A DNA stretch of 49,151 bases, filler included, from Basidiobolus ranarum (GCA_040143965.1; 2 parts of 2 records of this genome joined end to end with filler, not necessarily neighbours in it); one strand, 5' to 3'. Shown: positions 983 through 39,181, numbered from the whole stretch's first letter. The notes: generated from the letters alone by a model not told the origin. Made by a program: numbers and translations.

Positions 983-2545
983 TACTGACGGTAAAGAAAT
1001 GAACCCAATGTAAATTTAAGAAGGAAGGTGTGGTGTAGAGCAGGAATATAGAGAAGAAAGACGATGAAGATACTATTCTTTCATTTTCATTTTCACTTTA
1101 TACCATCGCCGAATGACACCGCTTATCAAAAAGAAAAAATCGGAGAAAATAGGGGATCTTTCGGAGTGAATTTGACCTTGGTCCGGTATGAATGGAATCA
1201 TGGTTTTTTACACAATCGCCAAGATGATCATCGAATCTGGATTTGATCAAAGATGTAATGACATTGACATGATCAAGGTCAGTTTCCAGTTTAAGTATTT
1301 GTGGTACCCAATGTAGGATTGTGTATAAGAGGTGGTTTTATTCAACCGAAATTCTATATTTGGTAGAGGTAGCATTCGGACAAACCTCGGTAGTGGTTTG
1401 GTTGATTAAGCGAAAGGATCCATTCGATAATCCCACGATAGATCGAAATTTCATACTGCGCAGGAAGTAATGCCACTCAAATTCCAACTCCTAATTTGAA
1501 GTTAATTAATGACGAATATGCCTCTTTGGCGTGGGTGCCAAGTTTACCCAGCGCTAAGTAGCGAGTCAAGCGCCTTTTTGCGCTAATTCTATGATATCCT
1601 CATATAGTGTGGGATGCCTGGATTTGATACGCTATTCTCACTTTCGCAGATCTTGATCCTGGTTATCTTTTGACTTGACACCGTCTTACCTTCAGCTGAT
1701 ACAACACTTCTACGGAATTCCTCTCTTGGAAGTTCAAGGCTTGGGAGTTATACGGAATGTAATCGAGGGTCGGCATCTTTCCAATTCAACCCTACATGCC
1801 GTGAGGATGATACATCAGCCTTTTCGCCCAAAACTTCCCACCTAGGTAAAGCTCACAGATAAGATCTGATGTTCCGTGGATTGATGTTACAGTACCACAG
1901 ATATGATCAATCATTCCATATGAGACTCTGAGTTGGGACCTAAATCTATCGTAGATGGATTTTAGCCCATGAGAACCCGAACTTTTCACCTCTACGTCTG
2001 TGAGAATGAACTTCATAATCGAGGCATAAATTGACTCAACCTAGTGATAGATGGTACGCATCTCAAGGAAGAGCCTACTATTCAGTGGTGTTTAGTTCCT
2101 GTTCTGAAAATTTACGCAACGCTGTGTTTTATCACGTGGAAAGCAGAATAATATCTGTTTAGAAGATGCAATCTAAGTATCTCGATGAAATTCTAGGAAA
2201 TACAGATTTGCACAAATTCAGTAATATAAATCACCAGTCACGAAAAGATTATCGCTGGCCCAGCGGCTATTATTAAGGAGATTCCCTGCTCCACAGAAAA
2301 GTACCTGGTTGCCGCATATCAATCAAAGGTGTCTCTCGTAAGCGTTGGTTTATTTACTGTTACCATATATTAAAATAACAATTTTTCATTAATTCGTAAG
2401 GAAAGTCGAGAGTCAGTATTAGATTCCTCATAACTAGCTGCAAGTAGAGCCAAAAAACACTAGCAGATATTATTAGAAGATCGCATCCCGATGACTTGTT
2501 AAATTCGCAAAGCATGAAATTTTCCCAAATCTCTAGTGCCATTTT

Positions 2546-4937
2546 TCAATTTTGACGCGTAGTTCTATGTTTAGAGATTAGACTACGAGTTTCCTCTGAA
2601 GGTTCTGCCATCTGTGTTACCCTCTTATCTTGAAAGAGAATAGGTTTGGTGCTGTTGATTTTGGTAAGGCTATCTCTACGCTCGTCACTAAGTAGTGAAT
2701 TGCTTATAGAAAGCCATGAGTAGTACAATATGTGTTCATATCGAAACAAGTCGACCTGACTCTTGACTCGACATGCCTCTCGGGAAATCTCTAATCCTTT
2801 AGCCATATGCTCCGGCGAGAAAAACCTGATTTGAAACTTTACACAATCTCGAAATGTGAATGCTTGATAAATGGATCCTGCTGGGATAACAACTGCTATG
2901 CCTGGCTTTTGGTGCACCGTTTGAATAGAAACACCATATAGTCGAGAGAATTGCTCCAGCTGTGTATTGGTTAGATAGAGTAATCTCTCGTGAATTGGGT
3001 CTTTTGATTTTACGATACGTAATTGCTCACGAACGAAGTCTCTTAAAAGTGGAACCATATTATGTGTAAAAACGTGCCAAATGGCTGCAGATGTTTTATC
3101 TTTGATTTCTTCAAGATCGATGTTATGAATATTTGATACATCCACATTATCCTGCTTGGAAGTGCTCTGTCGTACAGTTAGCATAACGTTGAAAGTGTCG
3201 GTAACTGCAAACTGTAATGGTGTGGTCCGTTCATTCATAGTTAAGCTGGCCGTTTCGTCGTGAAAAATCTCTAATTTTGCAGAGAGTTCTGGTTGAATAT
3301 GAGATTTCGGAAAGTAACTAACGAGATTATATTTTCCTTTGGGGAGTATATATTCTGAAAAATTGTTCATGACTAATAAGTGATATATATCCGACCAGTG
3401 TTGTGGAAACTTGATTGAGAAATCTTCCTCAAACGGCCAGCACTATATACATAAGGAATACGTCAATTTAAATCCAATTAACACATATGCTTTCCAAAAC
3501 TTACAGTAAATGCGATCGAAACTTTGTTCTTGCCAATGGAAAGCCCTTGGTCCGTTCCTAGCTGGATATTTTGCAAAACAGATGTATCGTTTTTATAAGA
3601 AACTTTCTGAGCGAATTCATCGATTTGAAGGTAATATGGAATAAAATATTCTGGACTCCAATTCTTTCGAGTGTTTTCCATGCTTAATTTCATAACGATT
3701 ACTTCTCCTCTTAACCAACCTATGCCCAGCGGAGAAATATAGTCTTTCGAAGTTGGGTAATTGCATTCTTCTTTAGTCTCTGGCTGTACTATTCTGGGTG
3801 CTTGAGAAGTAAATAATTCCTCTACAGAATTTAAAATTGCTATAAATTGACTTGGATCCAGTAAGCAGACTCGAAGCCACTTATGCAGAGCATTTCCGTA
3901 TGAATTGATACCGTCGCATTGGGCTTTCGCTTCATTATACTCAAGGTAGCACTCCTGACAAGTTTCCTTCCCGCAGTGTTGACAAAACCAACAACCGCTG
4001 AATATGTTCGTGTAGCAAATGTCACAAACCGTTCGCACTCCTTCTTGAGTGGGTCTCTGTAGATGGTCTTCAAATTGAAGGAACCCCACTTCGGTTTGAA
4101 GTATGGAATTAATTACCACATAAATATTTCGTTTAATGTACAACGCCTCAGCTGGCTTAAGATCATTAATATAGTATCTGATTTGTTGTAGTCGCTCTAT
4201 ATTCTCATCAGCCGGAGAGAAGACATTGTTTATCTGGTAACTTCTTAACGTACGGAAACCTTGAAACCGACAATGACCACTCATATGATGACGACAACTT
4301 CGACAATATTCAAAAGGCCTCAACAATTTATAAGATAGACATGGTCGATTTTGGATCGAAGTTGTTAGCTCTTCTAAACCGTTTTCTGAATTTTCTTTTT
4401 GTGTTCTTTTTGGTATTTCAGGTCCGTGAGCATATGGGGTGGATTTTTCATACTCCTCGGAGGATGAAGAGCTGGTGTCTATATCACTTTTACAAATAGG
4501 ATGCAAGTATCTATTGCACTGGAGTTGAGATAGAGTGGGTGACTTCCTTTTTGATTCTTGTAACTTCAGAATACTCTGGGCTTGAAAACGAGCCGCAAGG
4601 TTGCTGTTCTGATAGCATAAAGTTTGATTTTGATCCACTTTTGAAGTACCGTTATCCCCTGTATCGTTCCTTGACTCTTGGCTTTCACCTAATCGCTCCT
4701 GGTTGGGATTTTCCTCTGTACGGCAGATACGATCAAGCGATAGAGGCAAATTATCGAACAAGTATTCCGAGTCGTGATTCTTGTGCGCTATAAGAAATTG
4801 GAAAGATAGTCATAACATGGCAATAAAAGAGGAACCGGAGATATCTCTGCTACTTTACCTAAGAGATTTCGTCTTACATTATTTTGAAACCATTCTTTAG
4901 TTATGTCCATTTGGATTTGATTATGAGGGACTCCCAT
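2546..4937 (-). CDS. KDM3/JMJD1-like zinc finger + JmjC protein with catalytic residues substituted; exons 4937-4859, 4787-3505, 3442-2546
   Basis: Motifs CRSCR..CRFQGFR, C6 finger CDICYTNIFSGCWFCQHCGKETCQECY, WPFEEDF, AAIWHVF, DPIHE and QKPGIAVVIPAG..FFSPEH follow KDM3 order. Introns 4858-4788 (GTAAAG..TAG, phase 1) and 3504-3443 (GTAAGT..TAG, phase 0) join the ORFs in frame. True start uncertain. Confidence 0.85.
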
Positions 4938-5852
4938 GCTATGAGTCGATACCTACTAGCAATGATGATCTTTTTTGCTAGAGTTATTTTTAAATACAAC
5001 TTCGTTTAGATAAATTTGTACATTTATACATTTTCGTTGATCAGTAAGACATGTATCAGATGAACCATCAGTATCATCGGATACCATTTTTCGAGATAAT
5101 GACTACTATTCATTTGAAGCCTTACTTAATGACAATTCATGAAGAGCTACCAATTGGCAATCATCGTAGGCTGTGTTCACCAACGATGCCCATACATTCC
5201 CAGCTACTAAGGGCACTGCGTTGTGGAACATATTTTCTGGAGCAAGCCCCAAGAACTAGTACCACTGTATCTCAGACTCTCCAATATCTAAGTTTATGTT
5301 GACCTCTTGGCTGCTCTGTGGAGCTCTTCCCTGAAAGAGTTGATTTTTCGTATTTCACCAAGTTGGCGGGAACCGTTTTACTGAAGATGCTAGGGTCTAT
5401 TTTAAGTATCTATATTTTGCCAGGGTTACATCAGAGATGCATCCCAAAGATTCTGGTTCTTGGTACCTGCACGGTAAGAAATCTCCAAAGCAGTGATATC
5501 GCGCGTCGCATATTGTCAATTGAAACGTCGTGATGCAAATGGGTTGTTTACTATTCTGATTGTTATCATTATGAATCTGATTGGTATATGCTACAATCAA
5601 AGTGCCCCTCTTTTTAGGTGCGCTGCCATCATTATAGGCTGTAGGAATGCAGAATATTGAATGCGGAATAGCTAACGCTGTATGTCGAGGTGATCTTAGT
5701 TAAACTTGGAAAACATCGGATATTCGTCAGTCTTAAAATTCCCAAGCGTATGTGTCATCCAAAAGGGAAATGTGCACGAATGGGTTACAGGCTGCGACGG
5801 TAGCTTTAGAACATCCATCAATATTATCACTTGACCTGTTCGATGATGAAGA

Positions 5853-6006
5853 ACGTCAGAAGTGATTTGCTAGAGTATGCTCTGATTGTATACGCTGTCT
5901 TTGTGAAGTAATGCATTTATGCATGACGTGGATGTGTCAAGCAAACACTGATTTCAGCTAACGTCACTCTTTTTCGGATTAATGTCCGAGATTAAGTATA
6001 TATAAA
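5853..6006 (+). promoter_or_regulatory. Three TGACGT (CRE-like) motifs plus TATA box upstream of microprotein 1
   Basis: ACGTCA 5853-5858, TGACGT 5924-5929, ACGTCA 5961-5966, TATATATAAA 5997-6006; ATG at 6053. Confidence 0.45.
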
Positions 6007-6052
6007 GCAGGCGATGAGGTATCATAATTATTGCTATTCCAACTTTCTTAAC

Positions 6053-6283
6053 ATGAACACCCGCTCCAAGACCAAAGGTTCAGTATCCACCAGCACCGAG
6101 AAGTCTCAAATGACTTCCGATTCCGCCGCCTCTCATGATCAGGAACAAAGTATCAGGCAAGCTAGGGAGCAGATAGAACGCGAAGAAGAATTTATCAAGC
6201 AAAATCCACCTAGTAAAGCGGGGACTAACGAAGTACATGATGCTTCGGTCGAGGGAGAATTCTTACGATCGAGCTATCATTAG
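6053..6283 (+). CDS. Small hydrophilic protein (76 aa) with TNEVHDA motif
   Basis: TATA upstream, ATG 6053, AATAAA downstream; S/T/E/Q-rich; motif shared with next gene. Confidence 0.65.
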   Translation: MNTRSKTKGSVSTSTEKSQMTSDSAASHDQEQSIRQAREQIEREEEFIKQNPPSKAGTNEVHDASVEGEFLRSSYH

Positions 6284-7056
6284 TATTGTTATCTTGTACC
6301 ATCTTGGCATTGTATATCTGTTGCCACTCAATAAAACTTCATTTGAATTTCAAGTCACACAGACTGTTCCCTCTTTCATTAATAATCCCTAAACTAAGGC
6401 AAATCCTCAATCACGGGATACATTAATTGCTACTCGCTATGGAGTATGGACTGATTGGTGGTCATTCAGATTATCCAGGATAGAATGCGGATGCATCTAT
6501 AAACCGATTTCCAGAATCTGACGCTTGGAGATGAATTGTATTTGGTCACGAGGACAATGGCTTGGAGATGACAATCTCAGGTATGTTAGTATCATAAACA
6601 TCTTAAGTGACGGTTGTGTTTCGGTTGGCGCTTTCAGTGAAGGCAATGAACAGTCATCACTAGATTATCGTCTACCATCGAGATAGACCATGCACAATCC
6701 TATTTTAGGGAAATCCGACTGTTCAGCATCACCTCACTGAGTGGTCAAATCAAAGTGGATCTAAGGGAAGAGGCTTTGTGACACAGATGGACGATGATAA
6801 TGGAACCCTCATGACAGTATCAAGAGGAGTTTTTCAGGTAAATTGATGGTCAGATATAGCCATACTAATGATGATTTATTCTGACCAAGCGGCTTTTGCA
6901 CATGCCACTCGTCGAAATGGGTGTATCTCGTATATGACAACGTAGCACTTGAGTACGCCCAGGCTCCGTGCATCCATGAGGCATCAAGTATTTAAAGAGG
7001 ATACTGGCAACGTCTCTCCTCAGATTCCCATTTTTCCTTCAAACTCATCAACTCCA

Positions 7057-7230
7057 ATGGAAGCACAAAACAGAACTTCTGACAACGCTCAACAGGTCGA
7101 TATTGTTGCTACTGTCCAAGACACCAACACCGTATCCGAAACAAATCAAATTAGCGACTTGTCGCATCCTCAGGCCACCACCACCACTAATGAAGTTCAT
7201 GACGCTAATCATGTGATTCATCATCATTAA
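7057..7230 (+). CDS. Small hydrophilic protein (57 aa) with TNEVHDA motif and His-rich end
   Basis: TATTTAAA 6989-6996, pyrimidine-rich leader, ATG 7057; ends TTTTNEVHDANHVIHHH. Confidence 0.6.
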   Translation: MEAQNRTSDNAQQVDIVATVQDTNTVSETNQISDLSHPQATTTTNEVHDANHVIHHH

Positions 7231-21021: not shown

Positions 21022-21960
21022 TTAAGGTTCACCAATGAATGATTCCGGGAAATAAGGCTTAAAGAAATCTTCATACTTTCTGTTAACGCACATACCTCCG
21101 CCGGTAGGCCCAATATGAGGACAATGGAAGCCAGGTCTGTAAGGAATCATGTTGACATGAATCACTCGGCATAGAACGTTGTTCCCTCCCATCTCATCTG
21201 GATTACCCAAAGGAACACTATTTAGCAAGAAATCCATACAATGTTGAATACTGTCATATTGCTGATCCGCATTCAGACAATATTTGTCGTGCGATTCGCA
21301 GATTCCTTGGGCTACGAATTTTTGTACCATGCCTGGAAGTTTCTCAGGGGTGACTTCCGAGCGCGGAACCTTTAAAGAGTCCGCAATCAAAGGAGCTATT
21401 TGTGGTAAGAAACTACGGAAAGCTAAAGACCATCGACGAAACACAGCATCGTATTGTGCGATTTCACCCTTCTCGTTGAATCTCAACCAAACGTCTACCT
21501 GAACGGGTAGGTGAATACCAGTGGCTTCGTGCACAAAGTCAATGATAACACTTGTTGATGCCACTTCCCCTGTCACTGCAAACTCGAAGATACTGTAGCT
21601 CTTGGGGACGCCCAATATAGTAGGTACGTTGGAAGCGGTAGCAAGGTTGGAGAACAAACCGAATAGATATTCGATGTTTTCCTCCAGATCATTAAAAGTC
21701 CAGGTAATATCGACGCGTCCTCGAACATCAGAGGACAAAATACCTGGAGCTTTGCCGCTCTTGGCTATTACAGTGTTGTTGGGATACATGAAGTTCTGGA
21801 AGAGCCTATTGACGTAGCCAAGCTTGGTTGCATAATTCTCTTTGGAATGATGCTTGTTAGCATCAAGTCTGACAGATACCTCTTGATCATGGCCGTTGGT
21901 CTCCTGACCAAAAACTACGGAGATACTGAAAAGAGAGATGAGCACTGCGGCAAGCTTCAT
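21022..21960 (-). CDS. Secreted protein with NTF2/SnoaL-like region and Cys/His-rich C-terminal domain, function unknown
   Basis: Signal peptide MKLAAVLISLFSISVVFG; WLRFNEKGEIAQYD; CESHDKYC..QYDSIQHC..CRVIH..HCPHIGPTGGGMC. Fold call is inference. Confidence 0.75.
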   Translation of the reverse strand: MKLAAVLISLFSISVVFGQETNGHDQEVSVRLDANKHHSKENYATKLGYVNRLFQNFMYPNNTVIAKSGKAPGILSSDVRGRVDITWTFNDLEENIEYLFGLFSNLATASNVPTILGVPKSYSIFEFAVTGEVASTSVIIDFVHEATGIHLPVQVDVWLRFNEKGEIAQYDAVFRRWSLAFRSFLPQIAPLIADSLKVPRSEVTPEKLPGMVQKFVAQGICESHDKYCLNADQQYDSIQHCMDFLLNSVPLGNPDEMGGNNVLCRVIHVNMIPYRPGFHCPHIGPTGGGMCVNRKYEDFFKPYFPESFIGEP

Positions 21961-23954
21961 GATCAATAGATAGATGCTTTTCTTAGAACTGAGAGTATGA
22001 AAATCCCTCTATGGGCTCAGAGGGTTTTATATTGTTTTTCCGTTTCAAACCATAACTGGGAATATGCAGATGCCAGGTTTGAGAGGTTTGTAGCATACAT
22101 CCAATGATCCTCACTAGTTACAGTTAGCGGTCTTGAAACAAATAGTCCGCGAGCACCTTGTACCAATTTCAAGTATCGGGTAAGGAGTATCAACTCACAG
22201 TAACACATTCGAAATACTCCTTATCACTCATGCATCAAGTTCGTCAAGTTTGAGGGGGTAAAAGGGCTTGATAGAATCTAGAGCACCCAGTATATTGATC
22301 CGGTATTATCTCAGAAGACCTGCGCTGTAGTTTAGGTAGCAACCAGCTTATTTTACACTTCGAACCCCATATCTGGATTTTCCGTACATGCGGCTAAATT
22401 TGCGCACTCACTTACCTTTCTGGTGATTGGGGCCCCTTGTTGTGAGGGATTTTAGAAGATGATCAAGTGTCTTGGATTTGCTTTAGAGTACACTATGCCC
22501 TCATGAGGTTTTCCGGTGCATCCGACATGCGTGTTACTCAAGTACAATTCGTATGATTAAAATCAAGTTATCCTCGCCATGTAGGATCCTTGAAAACTCT
22601 ACGCAGCGGTGCAAGCATTCAATTTCTTGGCTGAGTTGTTTCAATCAGCAACGTGAATAGAGCGGATAGCAAGTTACCAATCGATCTACCAAGATACCAT
22701 GGACTCGGCATGCTCTGGGTACTTTGAATTTACCGTGGTAGGATTTACATCGTGTATGCACTTGAAGATTCCTGTAAATTGAGAAATTCACGATCAGAAG
22801 ATACATCTATCAATCACTTAGTACCAATGTTTGTATTGCTTTACAGTGCCTTCCCTGTGCTTTATCTTTTATCATAGTGATATTGGATTGATTATGAAGG
22901 GGCTTGTATAAATACTGCTTGGATGTCAAAGGAAGGGATAGCACCCATACTCCAGTTCTTTGTAATAGGTGGTGGATATAATACTTCAAAATTGTAAAAT
23001 CAGTTTTCCAGTTAAATTGTAATGACTTCATCCTGTTTCTGATTGTTTTGGGTTGGACTTGTTTCCCCTAGCCTCAGATTGTATTGTAAGTAGAAGCAGA
23101 GTAAGTATTTTGAAGTGTATACTGGACAATTTAGTGTTGATCTCTATGTGGCTTGCTGACAGCAAGTCTATATTACCACAACATATTCTCAAGGTCCAAA
23201 AGCCACCAACTTAATTAAGCAATTCTATTCTAACAGTTGGTTTTGATGAAAAATCCAAACAGCTAACTAAAATGCTTTTATATCATGATTAGTATGCTCA
23301 TTGCTTACTACCTAATAACTTTTATTGGGTTCATGAGAGTAATGATAAAAGGTTTTGAACTTTGTGAATCAAAGAAACAATCAATTGCATATCATACAGT
23401 TAGTCAACCAGGAGATGTTAACAAAGCAGACCTAGACCAATGTATACTAGGGTTTGAGTAGACATACAAGTAAACTTAAATTTCTCACATACATTTTTAA
23501 ATTGTAAAGTTTTTGCAAAAATACCTTTGTAGCTGGCATTTTGATTGGTTTACTGCTTGATGAATTCAAATAAGCTAGTATGCCTTTATTTATCCATTTT
23601 TGGCTACATGTTCCAGCTATGGTACAAATAAAAAAAAACTAGCATCTCATTATGTGTGGTCTCTATTGGGAAAATATGGGCTGTTTGGAGGAACTTTGGA
23701 AAAGTGGAGTTGTGAATAGCTTTGTGAGATAACTATTTATTGTCCAGAAATAAAGCATTTATACATTTTGGTAGAAATACAGAAAACTAACCCTGGGGTT
23801 GCATTCAGAACATCTGTGGGAATAAAATGAGCTATCTTTGGGGCAATTTGGACGAGTTTGAAATTTCCAATATGGAATTGCTAATTCTCACATTATTTGC
23901 ATATATATATAGTATATGTTCCAATTTTCAGCTAAGTATAATTTAACTAAGTAA

Positions 23955-24552
23955 TGTTAACTAACTTATATGTGATATATGAAGTAGTTAGGTGTATAAA
24001 GATAGAGATAATTAATTTGATAAAGACAATAAACTTCAACATTCCCACTCACCTATGTATTCATATATCTTAATCCTAACTCAAATCCTAATTCTTCAAA
24101 TTTTGGCTTGGGTAATGGTTTGGTAAGGATGTCAGCAAGCATGTCCTCAGTTGGACAGTACTCTAGTTGGATGTGCTTATTCTCAATAGCTTCCCTAACA
24201 AAGTGATGTTGAATATGAATGTGCTTACTTCTAGCATGAGATTTGGGATTTTTAGCTAAAAAAATACAACTTGGATTATCCTTGAAAATTATGGTGGGTG
24301 AACTTTGAAAAATGCCCAAGTCTTTGAGCAGTTTCCTTAACCACATAGCCTCCTTTGTTGTATGTGATGCTGCCATATATTCTGCTTCAGTTGTTGAAAG
24401 TGCTATGGTGGGTTGTTTCTTGCTATTCCAAGATATGGCTACTTCACTATAGAGAAAGGTATATCCAGTGATAGATCTTCTGTCCTCAATATCACATCCC
24501 CAATCTGCATCACTAAACCCAATTAGATCCTTATTCTCATAAGAATATGTGT
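23955..24552 (-). mobile_element. Ty1/copia retrotransposon 3' end: RNase H, polypurine tract and start of 3' LTR; truncated by gap
   Basis: Open frame from the gap to 24053: GFSDADWG, DRRSITGY, ISWNSKKQPTIALSTTEAEY, HARSKHI, MLADILTKPL; PPT AGGTGAGTGGGAA 24054-24042 directly followed by TGTTGAAG at 24041. Distal LTR boundary (23955) is a guess. Confidence 0.93.
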
Positions 24553-24652
24553 NNNNNNNNNNNNNNNNNNNNNNNNNNNNNNNNNNNNNNNNNNNNTTAA
24601 TTAATTAANNNNNNNNNNNNNNNNNNNNNNNNNNNNNNNNNNNNNNNNNNNN
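24553..24652. other. Assembly gap with artificial six-frame stop linker
   Basis: 44 N + TTAATTAATTAA + 44 N = exactly 100 nt. Confidence 0.97.
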
Positions 24653-27781: not shown

Positions 27782-28141
27782 TTAATTGATCTTGAAATAG
27801 TGACTATAACGTTCAACTCCTTTGTCGGTGACAATACGAATGGAATACTTCTCTCCAGGTTCCAAATCGTCAGGCACTGACCAGTCATACGATTCTTCAT
27901 TGGCATCTACATCAGTTGCAATTGCAACTGTCAACGCTAAGTTAGCCTTAGGACCCTCACGAAGCTCGATACTGACAGTCTCGGCTAGATCTGCTGCATC
28001 AATGATCCACGCCACGCTTACATCCTCACCTCGCCTCCACTCTGAATGTTCTACTGGATGAGTAATAGAAACCTCTGCGCCAACATACACAAGTGCCAAC
28101 ACCAAGATAAGTAGGAAGCTGCTAATATTGAATGTGCGCAT
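27782..28141 (-). CDS. Small secreted Kre9/Knh1-like N-terminal Ig-fold protein
   Basis: Signal peptide; ITHP..WRRG..V.W, SYDWSVPDDLEPGEKYSIRI, YSHYFKI; no Ser/Thr tail or GPI signal. Confidence 0.8.
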   Translation of the reverse strand: MRTFNISSFLLILVLALVYVGAEVSITHPVEHSEWRRGEDVSVAWIIDAADLAETVSIELREGPKANLALTVAIATDVDANEESYDWSVPDDLEPGEKYSIRIVTDKGVERYSHYFKIN

Positions 28142-29217
28142 ATTGGATCTGCTTTTCTGCTTAAGAAGTGAGTATTCAAAAAGCTGGACTTTATATGGTT
28201 TTCAAATCCCTAAATTGTGCTGTCAATTGAAATAACCCATATATTCGATTATACATATATTAATTAAAAGTATATGTGCTTCCTGTGAATTATTTGCTTC
28301 GTACATTTGAATGATTACAGGCACCATGAGCAACGTCTCGAAGTAGGGGTTGAATGAAAAAAACCTCTCCTACTGGATGATAAGGAGCCTACATAACATA
28401 ATGCTTGATTTGATAAAGTATCCAGTGAAATTTAGCCAGAAGCAAAGAGAAAGTGTTGCTTGAATATTGGGTTAATATGCTTGCAAGCCACTTATTAGTG
28501 CGATTTTGATCAATGGACAATTCTTAGAAAGTATGGTTTAATATTACTGTTGAAGTTCTTATTGTAGCTAAGCTTTGACCCTAGTTTAAACTAGCTCCGG
28601 TCACAATTGGAACAGCTTAAGTGAATTCAATTTTGAGATCACCATCAAATTAGGCCAGTTCTATCTCTTCAATACAGATATTTCGGAAATAGCGTTCATC
28701 AACTCCAATCAGATATTGGAAGATGGCCATGCTGATATAGTCTTTAAGCGTAGACAAACGGATTTTAGAGGAGTTACACTAAATAGATCCGTGTGATACA
28801 TAAATGGACATCCCGAATCTGCAACCATGTGTTACAGGGTCTATATGTTTTTGCGCATACTCTATTGCTTGTGTATGAATATATCTACATATAGATGCAA
28901 TGTAGGTAATGCTCACAGGCGGTGTATATCCTAGGTTAAAAATAGCACGGCATAGTTTGATGCAACTTGAGAACCCTGCAGAGAACAATACCCAGAGTAA
29001 CTTTGTATTTCAATTCATTTTTATTACACAATTGCACATATATCCATTAGTGATTATGCATGAAAATTTATGGAAAAAAGAGGATTGCTAAAGTGTTAGA
29101 TAGAAATAGAGCAACAACCTGTATATTTGATGCTGTGCTTCCAATCGATGTGGTATTAATTGTCAACTTGGGTTTAGTTACTGCAAGGTATGTCTTCTCT
29201 GAAATACCAACAACTTA

Positions 29218-29733
29218 TCACGAAGTCTCCACGCATCTTCCGTTGAACGAATATTGTGGCAAACAGCCAGTTCCGCAGTATTCACTGGATCCACCACAGT
29301 ACCCACCTTCGGAGCAGCATGGCATGCTCTGAGGACAAATATGGCCACCGAAGTTCGGACATCCTTCATTTTCTGGTAAAGGTTCTTTCCCTTGGATAGT
29401 AAAATAGGAACTATACTGATAATTTTCGGGCACTCTTCCAATAGTTACAGCGTAATCGCGTGCGGTGGAAAGCTGGGAAGGAACCACATAGCTACAGCTT
29501 CCATCTGGGCCCCCTTTATTGTAGCAAATTGGATTTGGTAAAGCTAACTGAAGATTGCTCGCCTCTCCATGTACTAAACGGACATCTACGCTAGTTTCTA
29601 CTGAGCCAGTCCAGGACACTGTAACATTTGAACCTGTTTTCCATACAACCCCAGTACCTGGAGTGATCACGTCCCCGGAACATATCTCTAGCAGACTCAG
29701 GGAAATCAGAGTGAACAAAACCTGTGCAAACAT
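29218..29733 (-). CDS. Secreted Kre9/Knh1-like Ig domain + hevein-type CBM18 chitin-binding module
   Basis: Signal peptide; Ig domain ending YSSYFTI; eight-Cys CPNFGGHICPQSMPCCSEGGYCGGSSEYCGTGCLPQYSFNGRC. Confidence 0.85.
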   Translation of the reverse strand: MFAQVLFTLISLSLLEICSGDVITPGTGVVWKTGSNVTVSWTGSVETSVDVRLVHGEASNLQLALPNPICYNKGGPDGSCSYVVPSQLSTARDYAVTIGRVPENYQYSSYFTIQGKEPLPENEGCPNFGGHICPQSMPCCSEGGYCGGSSEYCGTGCLPQYSFNGRCVETS

Positions 29734-30586
29734 TAAGTGGAGTTAGAAGTACTGAAAGGAGAGATATTTGTTAAACTATTCTTGCGCACCTTCGTATTTA
29801 ATAGATTTTGCCAAGTAGTATGTCCAAATCATTATTTCCCAATATTTTCAACTTATCTATCGAACTCTATTATTATGCTGCATATTCATTATGTTGGGCA
29901 GTCAATTTGCTGAAATGCAACTGATACTCTGGACATGAATAGGGATTAATTTCCTGACACTAAATTAACGCTACCTTGCATTAATTATATTAAACAATCA
30001 AAATAGTCATTGGGAAAGTAGCCAAAAGAGCCTTTGCTAGAGAACCTCATAAAAGAACTGCCCTATCAAGTAGGTAATGATAGGCTGAACTCTCAGGCGT
30101 CATCTGCACTCCTGAGAAGTATCGACCCATTAGTAAATTTGCCGGTGGAAAACGGTCATGAATGGATCAGCTACTGTTGAGAAGTAATAATTCCTTTGGC
30201 GCTTTGATGCACAAATTCAGCCCTAATAATTTCACTATCAACTGTATGACCGTACTCCTCCATAATTAAAAGCTATCTGAACCACATTGCGATTGGCTTA
30301 TTATAACTCCAGGAAGCAACCTCATTACAACCACCTTTCATACAGGGGAATAGCGATCTTTGACGAATACTCGGAAGAGTGGAATAAATCCAACTTTTTG
30401 AGGCAACTTTAATTCAGGGGGTAACATCCAGTAATAAAGATATGAATACTGGCGGAGTGGGAGTGGAAGTCTTCATATTAATAAGATTTTGGGCTGTATT
30501 TATTATACTAAAATGGAAATTACTATGTTCAAACTCTACATGGTTCTATCCTTGGAGCTATTATCACTTACCAAATGGTATCCGCT

Positions 30587-31556
30587 TCACGTAAAGGAAG
30601 GTTTTACGCTGATAGTGTTAATCGAATCTAAGCAGATGTTATCGTTAGCCTCGTCCCGTGTTAATGACTGAAGAGAATGCGCGTAGGATTTTCCGCCTCG
30701 CTCATTATATGTTTGATGGGTACTGTTTGGACTGAATGTCTGAGTTCTCTCTTTACGGCGATGATGGGAATTCCAAAGTTGCTCTGTCATTAACTTTGAA
30801 CTCAGAGCCCCTGTAGAAATGTAGCTTGAAATTAGAGTAGAGTTATGACAAGTTAGAGTCGTACAAATACTTACATCCCAAATCCAAGAAATAGCCGTTA
30901 ATCGCAGGTGCAACACCGATAAGGATCAAGAGCAGGATTACAGCAATTACTATGCATATGGAAAAGACATAAATAACGCCATCCTTAATCAACGCATCGT
31001 ACACTCCGCCAGTCTGAATCCTTGAAACTCTCAAAAGACTTCCAATAAATGCTCCACTCAAGAAGATAACTAAGCAACCCTCAGCGCTCACCAGTAGCAT
31101 AAACAGTAAATCTGTGCCTAATGAGAAACATGATCCAAGTGAGGTCACGACAGGCTGAATGTAGAACAAAATGATAACGTGGACAACAAGTCTGGCCACC
31201 TCGATTGAAGCTCCACATGCTGCAATAGTCTTGGAACACATATTAGCATAGTAAGCTTTGGTGATCAGAATCACTTCAATCAGCATTGTCGATACATAGT
31301 AAGTGATGGCTGCTAGCAGGATCCCAAAGCTACAATTTTGATTGTTCATTAGGATCAAAACGGACTGAATGATCTTGCTCAGAAGCAGGATAACAGACTG
31401 CCCCAAGTTCAGCTTGAATATGAAGGCTTTGTCTTTCCTAAGCATCTTAATGCTCATTATCGTATTACTGAGGCCTATAGGGATTGCGATAGCGGCGATC
31501 ATTATATTGACGTTACTTTGAAATATAACATCGGGGGTTACAGTTATGGCACTCAT
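30587..31556 (-). CDS. Seven-TM GPCR-like membrane protein, copy 2; exons 31556-30875, 30810-30587
   Basis: Seven hydrophobic segments, FKLNLGQ, KAYYAN, LIKDG; 64-nt GTAAGT..CAG intron splits the TM7 Trp codon. Confidence 0.8.
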
Positions 31557-33475
31557 TTGTGATAGCCTGTTAAGAGTAAAATGTACACTAGTTTTTTAAA
31601 TAAGTAGCAAGGACTCTCAGGCTAGCTTCGCAGATTAGAAACTATGTTATGAATTAGTATAAGGTGACGTTGGAATGGCTCCTGATTTGAAGTAAGGCTT
31701 CGAATTGGGAGAGTGTGTCTAAGTAGAGAACTGAAGTAAATTGGAATAAGAGTTAGCTTGTTACCCTTTGGCCTTGAGATGTTATTCTCTTATATACAAT
31801 CTAGTGAAAACAGAAGTTGGGGGAGAAGATCATTCAGCATTAAGTTCTGTAGAAGAATCCAGGAATTATGCTTCATAGTTGCACAAGTGGAGTACACACC
31901 TCACCAAGAATCAACGATTCATTAATTTTACTCAAATAGTACCCATTGTTAGTCAATGAATCGAATTGTTCCGCTAATTATTGAATTTGAGAGATGGACT
32001 CGATTTTGTGGACTTTTAAATAACGATAATGGAAAGATACCCATGACTTCTTTGGCCCAGAACTCGTACATATTACAGTCCAACTGCCATATTATGGTAG
32101 CGCCCGAATCATCTAGCCCACAAAAGAGTATTTATCCGGCCTGAGATGAAAGACAATGAAATTTCATTGTGTAAGGAACGATTCTTTTGCTACTGTGCCT
32201 GCAGCTTCCAAGTATTTGGAATTACTAATTTACACAACATCCAACAGTATACACATTAGACCAGCTAAGCGTATGATAGTTCGTTTGTCGTAGAGATACA
32301 AGGCTCTACCTATTGTATTTTGAGGTCGGTGGACCGCCAAATAACACGATAAGAATCTAGTACTTACACAGAGGTGTGCGAAATGTATGCTGTACCATTC
32401 ACATTGGTGTTACACTGGATATTTTGCCAGAACCGGATTGTTTTCTCGCAACGTGCACTTGTTGTGGGTAGGATTCATAACACTGAGAGTATCTGGTGTT
32501 CTATTGAATCGAGTCCAATTTTGTCAAACCTGATTGCTGTACAAATATTGAGTTATGCTACAAGATTTATTGTAAACAAACAGTGAGATGAGCTGGTAAC
32601 TCACGCGAATCTAATGAACCAGTTAATGATTTGATATGACTCGCATCAATCGGTTTACAAGCTGAGAATTTCGAACGTCAAGTGCTCCGCTCCAAATCTT
32701 GAATATTGGGCCGAATTTTTGGATGAAATTATTATCTGGAGTCTAAAGGACTTAGCCTAGTTTAGAAACTTGAGGAAATAAGTCACAAATTAATCAACTC
32801 CCAAAACCAATTAGTATATCTCCATGGCTACTGAAGCCAGACCCAATCTCATCTGCATCTACGTATTGTGCTGAATCGGTATGCTTGCTAGTTAGCAATC
32901 AGTTCAAGCTGGGCACAGTGACTAGATTTGTACCGATATTCAACGCTTGTAAATCCATTTAAATGGGCATACTGTGAGTGAAAAAAAATCCGCCATTTCC
33001 AAACAAGGCCACAGAAATCTTCATCTCACCTTTGTCATACGCACCCATAACATTACTCGATCGCACCAATAATAATCTGCATCTTGTGCCTAACACTAAT
33101 CATAATTAGAACACTGGATGGCTCGGATCAATTGAGCGCTTTGGGAAAGGCGAAGTTACGAATCTGCAGTGGAGTACCAAACATGTACCTCGTATGATTG
33201 CCCTGTTTATCGTTTATGAGCCTTCAGCTTCGAGATGCGTTACACTGTCATACGAGTTAGATGTGACCTGGATTGCTATATGCATTCCTTACGTAAACAC
33301 TGGTAATTGAAAAGGCTTCATAAATGTTTAGACGCCGACTTTTATTAACAGCATATCAAGAAATGTATCATCAGTAGGCCACTGAAGGCATATCATATTA
33401 ATTGGAAATCAACATGTACAATAATAGAGTAAATGGCAGTTAGCCATAGTAAGAATAGAGAATCTTTCGATTAAT

Positions 33476-34564
33476 TCAAACACCTTCATCGTAGTCACTG
33501 GCAATATGTACTTTGACGTTGGAGTCTTGGCCCTTAGTGATACTGGCGGCTGGGGAGCCAGCCTTGGTTTTGGCCCGTTCTTCTCTGCTATTATTGGTCC
33601 CGGAGGCTTGGTTGGCTGATTGGGAGTTCACGTTTGACAAGGATTTGGAGTTCTTCTGGCCCTGATATATATCCGTAAGGGGTCTCTCTCCTACCACTAC
33701 ACCATCAGGGAATCTAGTCTCCTCTTTCTTATCAGTTTCCTCTCCATACGCTTTAATCGGGGCCTCAGGAGTAGACCTGAACTCCAAAATAGGGCTATCC
33801 TCGGTCTCTGTTTTCTCGTATCCATAGCACGCTTTAGATTGTGAATTCTCATTCGATCTTTGCTCTACAGCTCTAATGTCGGTATGTGACTGAGCCTCTA
33901 TTCCTGAGGGTTTCTGATCTATTTGGTTTAAGCGATGTGCATACCTCTGACTGGGAAACCCATTTGAGGCTTTATTGCTTTCGCAGTCATCAGGTTTAGT
34001 AGACCTTTCGATCAATGTCTTGCCAATTTTTGGCTCCTGGTTGCTAATCAATTTACCATGTCCTACTTTGTTAGGTTGAGGTACCATAGATTTAGGGTAT
34101 GCATTCATATGATCTTTGTTGGATGGAGGCCCCATAGATTTAGGGTATGTATTCATACCATAAGTGGCCTTTTCATTATCAGATAGTTTGCTGCTATCGG
34201 CTTCAAGGATTGGCTGACCAGCTGGTTCCTCTGGTGAAGTAAAGTCATCAGAGCTAGCTCCAGTGTCGTAAGGACTCACAGGATTAGCATGGAACTCAAC
34301 ATACTTCAGGTTACTAGCATCATTATCGCCCATGTAGGGATTAAGATCAGGAGCATAAACAGTAGGAAAGTTACCAGACTGTTTGCTTTCATTGTTAGAA
34401 TTCGACATCAAGTAGGATGGCGAATGCTCCCTTCCAAACTCAAGCGCTCCTGAATTTATTTTTTCGGAATTCTCTTGCACTCTATTATACTTGGGGACAA
34501 CTAGTCCCTCAACCATAAAGAAGGCAGAGTGTACTATTAAAAGGTTTAAAGAAATAGATTTCAT
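33476..34564 (-). CDS. Secreted, largely disordered S/N/E/K/P-rich protein
   Basis: Intact 362-aa ORF, N-terminal hydrophobic signal-like segment, TATATAAA upstream (~34679-34672). Confidence 0.7.
   Translation of the reverse strand: MKSISLNLLIVHSAFFMVEGLVVPKYNRVQENSEKINSGALEFGREHSPSYLMSNSNNESKQSGNFPTVYAPDLNPYMGDNDASNLKYVEFHANPVSPYDTGASSDDFTSPEEPAGQPILEADSSKLSDNEKATYGMNTYPKSMGPPSNKDHMNAYPKSMVPQPNKVGHGKLISNQEPKIGKTLIERSTKPDDCESNKASNGFPSQRYAHRLNQIDQKPSGIEAQSHTDIRAVEQRSNENSQSKACYGYEKTETEDSPILEFRSTPEAPIKAYGEETDKKEETRFPDGVVVGERPLTDIYQGQKNSKSLSNVNSQSANQASGTNNSREERAKTKAGSPAASITKGQDSNVKVHIASDYDEGV
34062..34157 (-). repeat. Two-copy 48-nt in-frame tandem repeat
   Basis: MNTYPKSMGPPSNKDH / MNAYPKSMVPQPNKVG; CCATAGATTTAGGGTATG at 34084 and 34132. 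Confidence 0.85.
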
Positions 34565-35231
34565 TCCGGAAATGATTAGATTAGAGAAATGGGGTTTAAA
34601 GTTAAAGATGATGCACGCCAGTAACCGAGTTCAGTTGGTTTGGGATAGAGTTCTTCATCAACAGGCTCTGATTTATATACGAGTATCTGATACATATCTT
34701 ATTTACTCCTTGAAACGAATTTTCTTCGCTACAGATATTCGGGATACCAGCCTTGCTTATGATTAAGTAGTATTTAGTAACAAAAAGCAAAATCGTTATG
34801 GTGTCTGCACATCAAAAGTAGGTAGTGTTTTTTCGCACCTATGTAACTCCCCTTACATTTGAAAATTTGCGAATATCGATCTGTTATTTATTTCTATAAG
34901 TATTATGACGATGGCCGTATCGGAATTATATTGTATGACTTAAAACGAAAGAATTAACTCGCTGATCATGGTGATTGAGATTTGCAGATGCTGTTGAAAT
35001 TCGGATACTTGATACGCTAATCTTTATTATACTTGGACTTTAATTATCAAACGTATTTCCGCAATTCTCTGCATAACAATGAGGTAAAGTAATGACATCA
35101 AACAACTTCGCAACATACTGGGTATCTGAACAATGAAAGTAAATAAACAAATAAATAGAGAGATATTATAACTATAGGGAATTTATCTAATGTTGCAATA
35201 ATTACTGAATTCTTAAATTCTAATGCGAGGT

Positions 35232-36737
35232 TTAGTTTTGCCTTGATCGGTACCATCTACTTGTTTTTTCCACATTAATCAGCGCTACTGGAGATACGTA
35301 GCCAGACTTGTTTAAATCACTGATAATCTCTGCCTGTCTTCTTTCAATTGCTCTGGCTCTATTTACTGGGATATTCATTTTTTCCAAGTACCATGCTGGC
35401 AGTCCCATAGGAATTCTTAGATGGATTCGATTACGGCGATCGTCGGGATTTGGCCCTCCATATTCACCAGAGTATGAGAAAGCACCTTCTATATCTCGTT
35501 TTTGCAGATGAACTGGTAATGAATCAAATTCAAAATTCGATGAGAAATTCCCCAATTTAGTGACTTCACTGGCCTTTTTCATGTCGATTAGGATTTCATC
35601 GGATGCCTCTGTCTCGGTTGTACTTTCCACTGGTTCTGGAGTTGGGTTAGGGGGTTTGTGGTTTGATTCGCTCTCTTTGTTATCAGCAGTTGAGGGTGCT
35701 TTAAAATTTTCACTTGGTGCATTGGAGTATTGATAGCATAGCGTGTCAATGGGAAGTAAATCCTTCACTTGAATTTTGAAAGGTATCAGGTCGTCTTCTA
35801 AGGAGGCACGAGTATTATCGGAGTTTAATCCCAAATAGCTTCTACTTCTTGTATCGTTAGCCGCTTGCCAATCCGCCCAAATTTTATCTACAAACGCGTG
35901 ATGAATCCAGAAAATAGGACTATATTCAATGGGAGGCAGAGTTAGTCATATGAATAATCGCTCTACCAAAAGACTAACAAACTGGCCTTGAGATGCTCAA
36001 TCCACTAGGATAACAACAATACTTACTCGTTTGCGCTAGAAGCCATATCCATATCTCCTTTTTCACCACCAATACCGATGTGAATTCGATTATGAGGTAC
36101 ATCTTCAATATATTCATGAAGTTGTCGATAATCTTGAGCATTTTCAATAAAGTAGTTGAGTACCTCGGGCGGCATAAATGGTGAAAGTAATGTATTTCTA
36201 TCGAAATCCCGTCTCAAACAACGCTTTTCGGGAATCGCAACTGGCCAGTTGGCAAAAGGACCCGTCAACACACACGAATCAGGGCCCTCTCCATTACCTC
36301 CGAACCAATTGAACACTGGACTTTGTTCAGGAGCTTGGGAATCCAAAGACCAATCCTACATAGACAAGGGATGAGAATTTAATCTACTTGTGACATAAAA
36401 GTATTCGAAGGATAAGCATTGAATATTGAATTACCCAAAATGGTATCGTCACTTTAGGATCAATTTGTTGTAATGCCAGCTCAAATCTCTTTAAAAACCA
36501 TCTATGCCAGGGGAAAAATGGTGCGAACCCGTGTGCAGTTTCGAAGAAGCTGTTATGTTGTATTACGAACGCATCGTATTCGCCACGCTTCTTTAACTCC
36601 AAGATGCTATCGATGAAGCGATTTCTCTCGTCGACTGTAAGTTGCCTAATCTCCCGCCTAGTATGAATTCTAGAGCATTCTAGCGAGCTCACGAGGGGGA
36701 TAGATATGGATAGTACTGCTAAAGCGATCACACGCAT
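35232..36737 (-). CDS. Secreted tyrosinase (type-3 di-copper); exons 36737-36435, 36355-36027, 35919-35232
   Basis: Signal peptide, RREIRQL, CuA His (QHN, TAHG, FFPWHR), IPFWDWS, CuB His (HNRIH, [22 protein letters not shown]); both introns in frame. Confidence 0.93.
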
Positions 36738-39181
36738 TGGCAAAAGGTATCTTTAATGGTAACAAGATATTACTTGTATTCTATATACTGTCTGCTAGTG
36801 ACCAAGTGACACTGATGATAGGTGAGGATGGGGAAATCACTTGATTTTGGTAACAAGAAAAAATCCAACTTGCGAAATTAGGCAACTCTTATATTTGTTA
36901 GAAAAGGATCTACTGTAACAGGTGCGGACTCTTCCTTTGTTAGAAGTCGTGTTGATTATTTTGAGGTGAATGTAATTCCATGTCCGCTCGGTAGCACACA
37001 AACTCGCATGTAACACTCAATCTTTGTTTCAAGTTTGTTTTTATGGGGTGTTGAGATTCTGATAAGCCGGGGTAATAGGTAAACACCTCGGATTTTTCAT
37101 CGGAATGATAGGTATCAAGCAGCACATCGGTATCGAATACTGACCTTACGATAAGTAGTGTAAAGTTAGATGATGGTACCGCCACTCCCATTTTGCAAGA
37201 TCACATGTTCATGTCCTCACCAACGTTGGTATATATATATCTTGAGGGAAATGATGAGAAAAACCAACCAACACCAGCAACGATACTATACCGCTTGACT
37301 CTGAGAGAAGTTTGACCCCGACGACCATATCTTTTGTATCAGAAAGTTCAATAATGTATCAGGTGTGCTTTTATCAGTCAAATGCCATTTCTCTACTCGA
37401 TGATGTGCACATTAAGATTATCGGAGCCAGAAGATGAAGTTCTCACGACGATTATCGTCAATGAAATACCCCCCCATCTACTAATACTTGGTGTCTGCAG
37501 GTTTCATTATAATCATGGAATTTCCCCTCAATAAGTGAATGCATTAAAGGCTTTCTAGCAAAACATTACAATTCTGTGATGAACGATACATCACCTCCTC
37601 CTCTCACCAAGTTGCCTGTATGACACCACAGTGATTTATATGGAACTCCACAAACAATACAAGCACTTATTATCATATTACTGAACTTCCCATTAGTCCA
37701 ATACGAAACAATTGTTGGCTAATCTTTGTGATAATAAACATTATTTGTCAGCTTAGCTCATCCAGACGTCCGAGATATGAACGAGTTTCAATTTAAACCG
37801 GTATATAAGATATACACAAACTATCCATTGGTGGATTGGTGGAAATGGAAACATTGAGATTGATGATGTGGTTGGATTGAAAGGTTCTGGTTTCTTCTGG
37901 GAACCGGCTTTTGACGGCATAGATGTCATTCTTTATTCAGCACATATCTGGAATATGCAAACGTGAAGTAACCTACACCAAGTCTAATGCTATGATTAAC
38001 AGTAGTATTATCAGCTGCGTGTAATCATGCTTGCACTTCTTCGCATTACTCGTACATGCACTGCTTCAATGTGCATTTTCTCAACACTCGCCATACCTTC
38101 AGGTTAAAGCAAATGCTTATGTCGAATGCAAGTGCAAATCTACATAATCCAAGATATATATGTAAATACCACATCAAATGCAAGCGGATATTCTACTGGA
38201 CTCTATGGGCTATTCAAAATCCATGGCGTTTCCATTATTTAAGCAAATAATGCGCATGATGTGGAAGTTGGTTTAATTTTAGACATCACCATGGTTTCCT
38301 CAAACTCATTAATCATGCAGACGACGTCTGTCTACCTCATAAGCATCAAATAATCAATTTGCGAATCAAACCTTTTCTTTTGGAAATGATGGGCTTTTGC
38401 AGGTCAATTATTAATCTGCTACCTGGTGTTGCGTTGAACGAATCCTTCACCTCTATATACAGATACAATGTGTGCTTGAAATTGCGTGAAAACGATCAGT
38501 CTTGTTTCAAGTAGGTAATGCAGGCGGTATTTGCTATGGGCAATTCTATAATAACGCCTACGTCGTTTCCAAGGAAATATCCATCTTTTTTGTGAGGTTT
38601 TTCCAAGTTCAGATGAATAAAATAATCGGGGTTGGCGCCAACTTTATATCTCTTCATGCCAACTCCTCAACTGTTCAATTGAGTAAGATTGCTGTTTGTG
38701 AGGTTAGACTGTTCGACGTATCAGAGAAATTCGAATAAACCTTGGTTTGTGAGCTGAACGAATCACCTTTCTTGCATAAACTGCACCTTCTTAAAAGAAT
38801 CAAATGGATATGCATCAACCGCGCATCTCAGTCAATTACTTTCTTCCATAGTTTACTTGTTTTTCAGATGCTGTCATGTCTGGCCAATGAAGATTAGAGC
38901 ATAAGCTGAAGTTCAATGTTCGATAAATATTCTATCCTGCCATTAAGATCCGGCATCTTTCTAGGCGCCTAGTAATGAATGCCTGTCTTTTTGGAGTTTG
39001 ATGAGGTTTCAAAAGGCTCAGACATATTAATGAATCTACATTACTTTTCTGAATGCTATTTAAATAGACCAGACCTCAGCGGAAGTTATCAAAGTAGTTT
39101 AATCAACCACCACACCGAAAGCCGACTCTTTTTCGTATAACGCCAGTATAGTATTCATCATTACTTCTCACTAGCCTAATC

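Follow-up and report, generated by a model that had tools for sequence, protein, structure and literature searches.

A KDM3-family paralogue of Basidiobolus ranarum with all three iron-ligand positions replaced

Structure and family membership of K7432_004377

The window (the whole stretch of DNA analysed, 49,151 nucleotides including filler) comes from Basidiobolus ranarum and contains K7432_004377, the gene under study, a minus-strand gene on contig C150 of the same genome. Two isoforms are annotated under this locus tag, P0001 (558 aa) and P0159 (752 aa), which is only a hint that the gene is expressed. The 2259 nt obtained by splicing three exons translate exactly to P0159, with one terminal stop, and this mapping agrees with the start (4937) and end (2546) given in the initial annotation. 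The same annotation described over 700 uninterrupted codons; the genomic sequence instead shifts frame and meets stops (the largest stop-free stretches at the locus are 443 and 298 codons, in differing frames), and the 752 codons are continuous only after removal of two GT-AG introns. The shorter isoform begins within Cys cluster 1 and is missing three of the four Cys there. The features of the gene and its product are as follows:

4859..4937, minus strand: exon 1, with the ATG at 4937; residues 1-26 plus one base; maps to P0159
4788..4858, minus strand: intron 1, 71 nt, GT...AG, phase 1
3505..4787, minus strand: exon 2, residues 27-454, with the poorly conserved N-terminal region, both Cys clusters and the start of the JmjC-type domain
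3443..3504, minus strand: intron 2, 62 nt, GT...AG, phase 0, at the position of an intron of the intact paralogues
2546..3442, minus strand: exon 3, residues 455-752 and the stop, with the JmjC barrel and C-terminal helices; Pfam JmjC match
4270..4341, minus strand: Cys cluster 1 (C176, C188, C191, C199), 31/39 residues identical to the orthologue
3883..4026, minus strand: Cys cluster 2 (C281, C284, C295, C298, C303, C306, C317, H328), a cross-brace finger, ZZ- or RING-like
2705..3741, minus strand: predicted KDM3-type catalytic-domain fold, about residues 376-700 (AlphaFold2 model)

A candidate in-frame intron at 4253-4197 was rejected; it is not annotated and the orthologue aligns straight through it.

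The protein scores 29.7 bits with Pfam JmjC, against a cut-off of 24, and all seven of its sequence matches in the PDB are JMJD1C or KDM3B. The initial annotation had called it KDM3-like and proposed structure prediction as a check. The AlphaFold2 model of P0001, built on an 82-row alignment, is a confident KDM3-type fold (mean pLDDT 81.8, pTM 0.84) and superimposes on KDM3B (6rbj) with a Z of 24.3 and an rmsd of 4.1 over 278 residues. KDM3B and JMJD1C occupy structural ranks 1-6 (Z 22.9-24.3) and the next family follows at 18.4, a ranking that is not independent, since the model was built on a KDM3 alignment. The closest JmjC sequence, the predicted fold and the upstream Cys/His finger all place K7432_004377 in the KDM3/JMJD1 family by descent, in line with the original label.

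The two Cys clusters had likewise been reported as retained, and all 12 of their Cys/His are present, both here and in the B. meristosporus orthologue. Folded alone, the helix-finger-helix part reached a pLDDT of 81.6, and the best matches to its model are the helical-zinc modules of KDM6B (Z 6.4), JMJ13 (Z 6.1) and KDM5 (Z 4.8). The helices round the KDM3 finger resemble the KDM5/KDM6 helical-zinc module, placed here before instead of after the JmjC domain. Over 48-55 residues the finger model itself overlays the ZZ domains of Nbr1, BIG and p62 at an rmsd of 1.9-2.7 (Z 4.0-4.5); RING/U-box folds are tied with these within 1 Z unit. Foldseek on the finger favours ZZ (E 0.017-0.044) and a 61-row finger profile matches ZZ domains weakly (best E 0.004), while a profile of three sequences gives RING domains as its top matches, also weak (ARIH1 E=0.0097, NOT4 E=0.034). 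No Pfam ZZ match was seen in any of the 13 proteins scanned, a PDB search with the single finger sequence found nothing, and the ESM Atlas returned only unnamed plant clusters and one KDM3 fragment at 0.79. Two acidic positions of the finger are kept family-wide (Asp282 in 58/64 and Glu/Asp301 in 60/64), and both dead copies have D282 and E301; acidic residues of this kind in ZZ domains bind the free N-terminus of a peptide. The ZZ resemblance, which would extend to the whole KDM3 family, is a lead, not a result; the term 'ZZ domain' was not used in any of the papers listed from the open-licence literature (supplements aside).

The iron-ligand positions and the surrounding pocket

The initial annotation read Gln, Ala and Tyr in place of the three Fe(II) ligands, and the codons it gave are confirmed by alignment to JMJD1C and to the gene's own paralogues:

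3212..3214, minus strand: Gln531 (CAG), at the position of the first Fe-ligand His
3206..3208, minus strand: Ala533 (GCA), at the position of the Fe-ligand Asp/Glu
2867..2869, minus strand: Tyr646 (TAT), at the position of the distal Fe-ligand His

All three align gap-free with the HxE...H of human JMJD1C (2ypd, E=1.7e-25) and with the HxD...H of two paralogues from the same genome, and identical residues occupy these positions in P0002, the orthologue from B. meristosporus. The H-D/E-H triad is present in 136 of 152 aligned rows (149 matches plus three sequences of our own, one match duplicating one of these), and its loss in K7432_004377 is thus not due to chance. The protein does not have the HxD/E...H that marks an active KDM3 demethylase. 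The original reading would have been undermined by an intact HxD..H elsewhere; we found no displaced triad in the JmjC exon, where the sole H-x-D/E is an HDE at residues 515-517, off the canonical position. This HDE is present in both species; we considered it as an alternative metal site and judged this unlikely, as it lies at the end of the first barrel strand, away from the canonical one. The metal ligands of KDM3B are H1560, D1562 and H1689 (PMC7718485, PMC5933860), and single His mutants are reported to abolish the activity of KDM3A/B (PMC3623819, PMC13149330). From the lack of a displaced triad and the effect of these mutants, we strongly infer that the demethylase activity of K7432_004377 has been lost.

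The change extends beyond the triad. We took as family-conserved the 64 columns in which 80% or more of the 136 rows with an intact triad agree; of these, the two dead copies leave 39 unchanged, carry the same new residue in 18, differ from the family in one copy only in 5 and are changed differently in 2. In other words, 18 of the 20 conserved columns altered in both species have become the same residue. Among the 18 are four replacements absent from all 136 intact-triad rows (Glu512 for Tyr, Phe514 and Gln658 each for Ala, and Arg660 for Asp), which, together with a retained Lys, map to the following segments:

3263..3271, minus strand: Glu512 (family Tyr) and Phe514 (family Ala), derived and shared by both species; presumed to face the pocket
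2825..2833, minus strand: Gln658 (family Ala) and Arg660 (family Asp), derived and shared by both species; presumed to face the pocket
2837..2839, minus strand: Lys656 (of DCVKF), kept in both species

By correspondence with KDM4A (Tyr177, Ser288, Asn290) and KDM6, we take residues 512, 514, 658 and 660 to face the methyl-lysine and 2-oxoglutarate sites, and Lys656 is presumably the 2-oxoglutarate-binding Lys. The role of KDM4A Tyr177-type residues has been described (PMC13632499). A profile alignment to a KDM5-like ORF gave no usable correspondence for mapping the pocket residues (probability 2.3%). Lys656 was rightly noted as retained in the initial annotation, and it is lost in 8 of the 11 other ligand-deficient rows; the 2-oxoglutarate site as a whole is nevertheless not intact, since the orthologue has Ala in place of Thr528, three residues before the first ligand position, and both species have Phe514 where the family has a conserved Ala. 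The pocket seems to have been rebuilt and is plausibly filled by its own charged residues, in a Glu-Arg/Lys network. A self-filled pocket would count against both H3K9me reading at this site and 2-oxoglutarate binding, and would still leave room for a new ligand.

Like the H3K9me1/2 demethylases of the family (human KDM3A, KDM3B and JMJD1C, and fungal KDM3s such as the two intact ones of this genome), K7432_004377 combines a zinc finger with a C-terminal JmjC domain, and it has their fold and the 39 unchanged columns; it differs from the active enzymes in its Fe ligands, in the residues presumed to line the pocket and in a 5-residue gap in the C-terminal helical loop. The N-terminus of the intact KDM3 on C6882 (L004:4185-5765) has a weak, homeodomain-like Homez match at residues 88-114, below the cut-off (E=0.026), and this part is absent from the dead copy.

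Loss of ligands is not confined to Basidiobolus. Apart from the 136 rows with the triad and 3 fragments, 13 rows deviate, two of them the Basidiobolus pair; of the other 11, seven have Tyr at the distal His and three lack all three ligands. These three are P0071 (Handroanthus, with the same Q/A/Y), P0069 and P0125 (Hohenbuehelia). P0071 and P0069 fall elsewhere in the tree, while P0125 shares a long-branch fork with the Basidiobolus pair, and the Basidiobolus loss is probably independent of the others. Convergence on Q/A/Y needs no special selection, because each of the three replacements (His to Gln, Asp to Ala, His to Tyr) takes a single nucleotide change.

Further fungal KDM3 copies have Tyr at the distal His (P0090, P0027, P0010 from Dipodascopsis, P0112 from Zopfochytrium, and P0125). 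P0090 and P0027 cluster with Conidiobolus coronatus proteins, the pair being sister to the intact Conidiobolus copy P0040, and P0112, a 1787-aa model, appears to hold an intact-type and a degenerate JmjC together. In the open-licence literature (supplements aside) we found no paper on Basidiobolus and histone demethylases, and none of the fungal KDM3 matches listed there concerns K7432_004377.

Origin of the paralogue and constraint on its sequence

An active-type paralogue, which the initial annotation had suggested looking for, exists in two copies: the genome has two further KDM3 genes with an intact HxD...H, one on C6882 and one on C247 plus C1542 (3/3 candidates scored). This intact pair lies in collinear duplicated blocks and its synonymous divergence is saturated (pS 0.74, dN 0.12). 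Intron 2 of K7432_004377 has a counterpart in both genes, identical in position and also in phase 0, which indicates that K7432_004377 arose from a KDM3 gene by DNA-level duplication. Its core is 30% identical to that of an intact paralogue (151/504). The K7432_004377 region is itself collinear with C6980 over 7 blocks, yet no second copy was seen there (no tblastn match with E<1 in 20 kb and no tblastx match in 29.5 kb), and a DNA search recovered only the gene itself.

Several other observations were made in these regions. The collinear duplicated blocks (window 349-21840 vs. C6980, and C247/C1542 vs. C6882) have saturated synonymous divergence and would fit an ancient duplication of the whole genome or of large segments. 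The interval C6980:5298-6542 (L023), set against window 1016-5995, holds a gene of the NADPH-oxidase/ferric-reductase type and an ICln-like (Voldacs) ORF, and no dead KDM3. That oxidase-type gene has a 75% paralogue on C247, where an intact KDM3 is found about 9 kb away, and the oxidase/KDM3 swap between collinear regions may reflect reciprocal losses after an old segmental duplication. Two small window ORFs (5996-6283 and 6946-7230) are conserved in C6980 (53% and 40% identity), the first without a Pfam match, and a 328-aa ORF at 21022-22008, with a signal-peptide-like start and no Pfam family, is strongly conserved there. Further along the window, an RNase H-like retrotransposon fragment (24053-24604), which we take from its motifs to be Copia-type, adjoins an assembly gap, and a cluster of secreted-type genes spans 27782-36752, including a Kre9/KNH Ig-like protein with a chitin-binding domain and a tyrosinase.

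The closest relative of K7432_004377 is P0002 (ORX85574.1) of B. meristosporus, and no other close one was found; among 1.84 billion representatives, only 2 proteins fell below 1e-30, of 935 below 0.001. The triad loss, as read from these two sequences, predates the split between B. ranarum and B. meristosporus. The intact-type KDM3 model of B. meristosporus, P0163, is without zinc fingers and without 13 residues around and including the distal His, a gap that reflects misannotation or a damaged copy, so that this model does not document a full triad in that species.

We judged selection on K7432_004377 at the protein level. A metagenome scan for orthologue DNA gave 82 pattern matches, none of which was confirmed. 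Between the two species, 156/220 residues of the JmjC core are identical (71%), vs. 3/25 (12%) in an internal loop that serves as a low-constraint control (Fisher p=1.2e-8):

3092..3169, minus strand: variable loop, residues 546-571

Identity amounts to 24/40 in Cys cluster 2, 40/128 in the N-terminus, and 62/91 (68%) and 94/129 (73%) in the two halves of the JmjC domain; it is also higher in conserved than in variable columns (57/64 vs. 101/180, p=7e-7). The intact KDM3 copies are 92-93% and 82-92% identical over the same halves, and the constraint on K7432_004377 is thus real but looser. In neutral simulations, with indels ignored, none of 1000 runs remained stop-free at any of 5 divergence levels, and neutral divergence down to the 57% identity seen in the core should introduce some 17 stops across the two lineages. 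Together with the domain-specific constraint, this makes plain decay unlikely; the idea of a paralogue in early decay, raised in the initial annotation, also sits poorly with an orthologue that has the same substitutions.

In a tree of 147 rows (the 152 less 5 fragments), the stem leading to the dead pair measures 3.34 substitutions per site and its two tips 0.17 and 0.41. The pair is placed away from the plant and animal rows, albeit with a long branch, and a test on a hand-chosen 37-row subset does not reject its grouping with the intact copies of the same genome (p-AU 0.569). A burst of change followed by slowing fits neofunctionalisation.

Possible roles of a non-catalytic KDM3 paralogue

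On sequence grounds, K7432_004377 is a non-catalytic KDM3 paralogue of the JMJ24/Hairless kind: its cofactor residues are lost, an active-type paralogue is present and selection, as seen at the protein level, maintains the gene. Very probably it is both catalytically dead and functional. The iron site is gone, and the fold and zinc fingers are kept in two species, which suggests that the protein regulates chromatin non-enzymatically; the non-catalytic role originally proposed remains the best reading, given the lost triad and the two intact paralogues.

The role that we consider most likely, with modest confidence and by analogy, is that of an adaptor at chromatin, or of a protein opposing the intact KDM3s, that acts via its zinc modules and surface. 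According to this scheme, a KDM3 gene was duplicated at the DNA level and lost all three iron ligands before the two species split. A burst of change after the duplication (stem of about 3.3 substitutions per site) would have rebuilt the cofactor and methyl-lysine pocket and then slowed, with purifying selection keeping a folded, catalytically dead protein. This would work through what it has retained, namely both zinc modules and the outside of the JmjC fold, and would compete with or steer the intact KDM3 enzymes, thereby tuning H3K9 methylation, in the way that JMJ24 reportedly counteracts IBM1. One of 2 Pre-SET matches in the genome exceeds the cut-off, and chromo-like and chromoshadow parts occur in two HP1-like ORFs, indicating that the H3K9 methylation machinery is present in B. 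ranarum. Several findings count against the adaptor reading: dead orthologues were found in two species only, they evolve faster than the intact copies, and K7432_004377 is single-copy while its neighbours and the intact KDM3 have been kept as duplicates. In addition, the position corresponding by spacing to KDM3A T667 holds Thr in K7432_004377 but Ile in the orthologue, and a search for docking motifs in both species found no PxVxL common to both and no LxxLL, so that no such motif points to a partner.

Known JmjC proteins with variant ligand sites offer precedents of differing closeness. JMJ24 acts as an E3 ligase, and Epe1 belongs to a JmjC subfamily other than KDM3. Two plant KDM3 clades with variant cofactor residues are reported to be expressed (PMC2579438), and JMJ24 is reported to counteract IBM1 (PMC9029850). 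As in these JMJ24-like clades, a dead KDM3 occurs here beside active paralogues, and the P0071 triad is also Q/A/Y; the plant proteins differ in their separate tree branch and other N-terminal fingers, and P0071 in its lack of the Lys and its other pocket residues. Hairless (KDM3D) is likewise a KDM3-family protein with replaced cofactor residues, described as inactive with a proposed scaffold role (PMC3623819), whereas K7432_004377 has no LxxLL-type counterpart of its nuclear-receptor motifs; a report that Hairless keeps H3K9 activity despite altered ligands (PMC7280979) weighs against the dead-enzyme analogy. Epe1 of S. pombe is a fungal JmjC protein with Tyr370 at the distal His; it needs His297 for Swi6 binding and is described as having a non-enzymatic role at H3K9me chromatin (PMC7192584). 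It differs in keeping the first His (H297), which is Gln in K7432_004377, where all ligands are lost, and in binding Swi6/HP1, for which the two Basidiobolus proteins share no PxVxL. Of the two likenesses drawn in the initial annotation, the one to Hairless, together with the dead plant clades, is the closer precedent; the one to Epe1 is weakened, since Epe1 keeps H297 and needs both it and Y370 (PMC7192584).

The dead JmjC pocket might instead bind the methylated H3K9 tail and shield or expose it, as proposed for Epe1. The barrel core and the 39 of 64 conserved columns that neither species has altered, the H3K9me machinery in the genome and a distal His to Tyr change as in Epe1 Y370 (PMC7192584) would suit such a reader. 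We think it unlikely, however, because in both species the Tyr and Asp of the inferred methyl-lysine site have given way to Glu and Arg, and two small residues to Phe and Gln, and because Epe1 keeps and needs its H297 (PMC7192584); the 'chromatin reader' first suggested is weakened as far as it would act via this pocket. We hold it equally doubtful that K7432_004377 forms mixed dimers with the intact KDM3s and changes their output as a natural dominant-negative subunit, for example by stopping at H3K9me1. According to a review (PMC7280979), KDM3A forms homodimers via the JmjC and zinc-finger domains and depends on both active sites, and these domains are kept here, with intact partners in the genome; at 30% core identity to an intact paralogue a symmetric interface may have drifted, and dimerisation is documented for KDM3A only.

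A re-purposed pocket, in which Lys656 and Arg660 hold an anionic metabolite or an acidic peptide and make the protein a sensor or non-histone binder, seems to us quite improbable. In its favour are the fixation of 18/20 doubly changed columns to the same residue, the position of the C-terminal half of the old active site as the best-conserved long stretch (94/129) and the retention of Lys656 in both species despite its loss in 8/11 other ligand-deficient rows. Shared derived residues may, however, simply date from the long stem and be retained for packing, and Phe514 would crowd the cofactor site. In a related and similarly unlikely version, the active site was rebuilt and then frozen round Glu512, Lys656, Gln658 and Arg660 for a new ligand, with the ZZ-like finger anchoring the protein on the free H3 N-terminus. 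If true, comparison with the intact paralogues would show how KDM3 enzymes engage H3, a question that a 2025 review describes as still to be settled (PMC13632499).

It is very unlikely that Cys cluster 2 is a RING-type ubiquitin ligase module for which the JmjC fold only does the targeting: the RING-first ranking of the three-sequence profile (ARIH1, NOT4) and the closeness of RING/U-box to ZZ folds are offset by the weakness of these matches, by the larger profile and Foldseek, which favour ZZ, and by the occurrence of the finger in intact enzymes, where it serves demethylation (PMC13632499). As improbable is a decaying paralogue without present function, in spite of its faster evolution and the lack of a copy in the collinear sister region, in view of the open 752-codon frame, canonical introns, matching orthologue, domain-specific constraint and neutral runs that never stayed stop-free; function might still have been lost very recently in one of the lineages.

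Returning to the adaptor or antagonist reading, dead KDM3s recur, and K7432_004377 is thus a new and probably independent case of a known phenomenon. This fungal case, apparently independent of the others, extends the plant and mammal pattern of a dead KDM3 beside active ones, with the same Q/A/Y triad arising in an unrelated plant protein. Since an intact paralogue with the same gene structure, including the shared intron position, is present in the same genome, B. ranarum offers a clean natural experiment for separating the catalytic from the scaffold roles of KDM3. Finally, the ZZ-like finger with its conserved acidic residues provides a testable idea for how the H3 tail may be recognised across the whole family.
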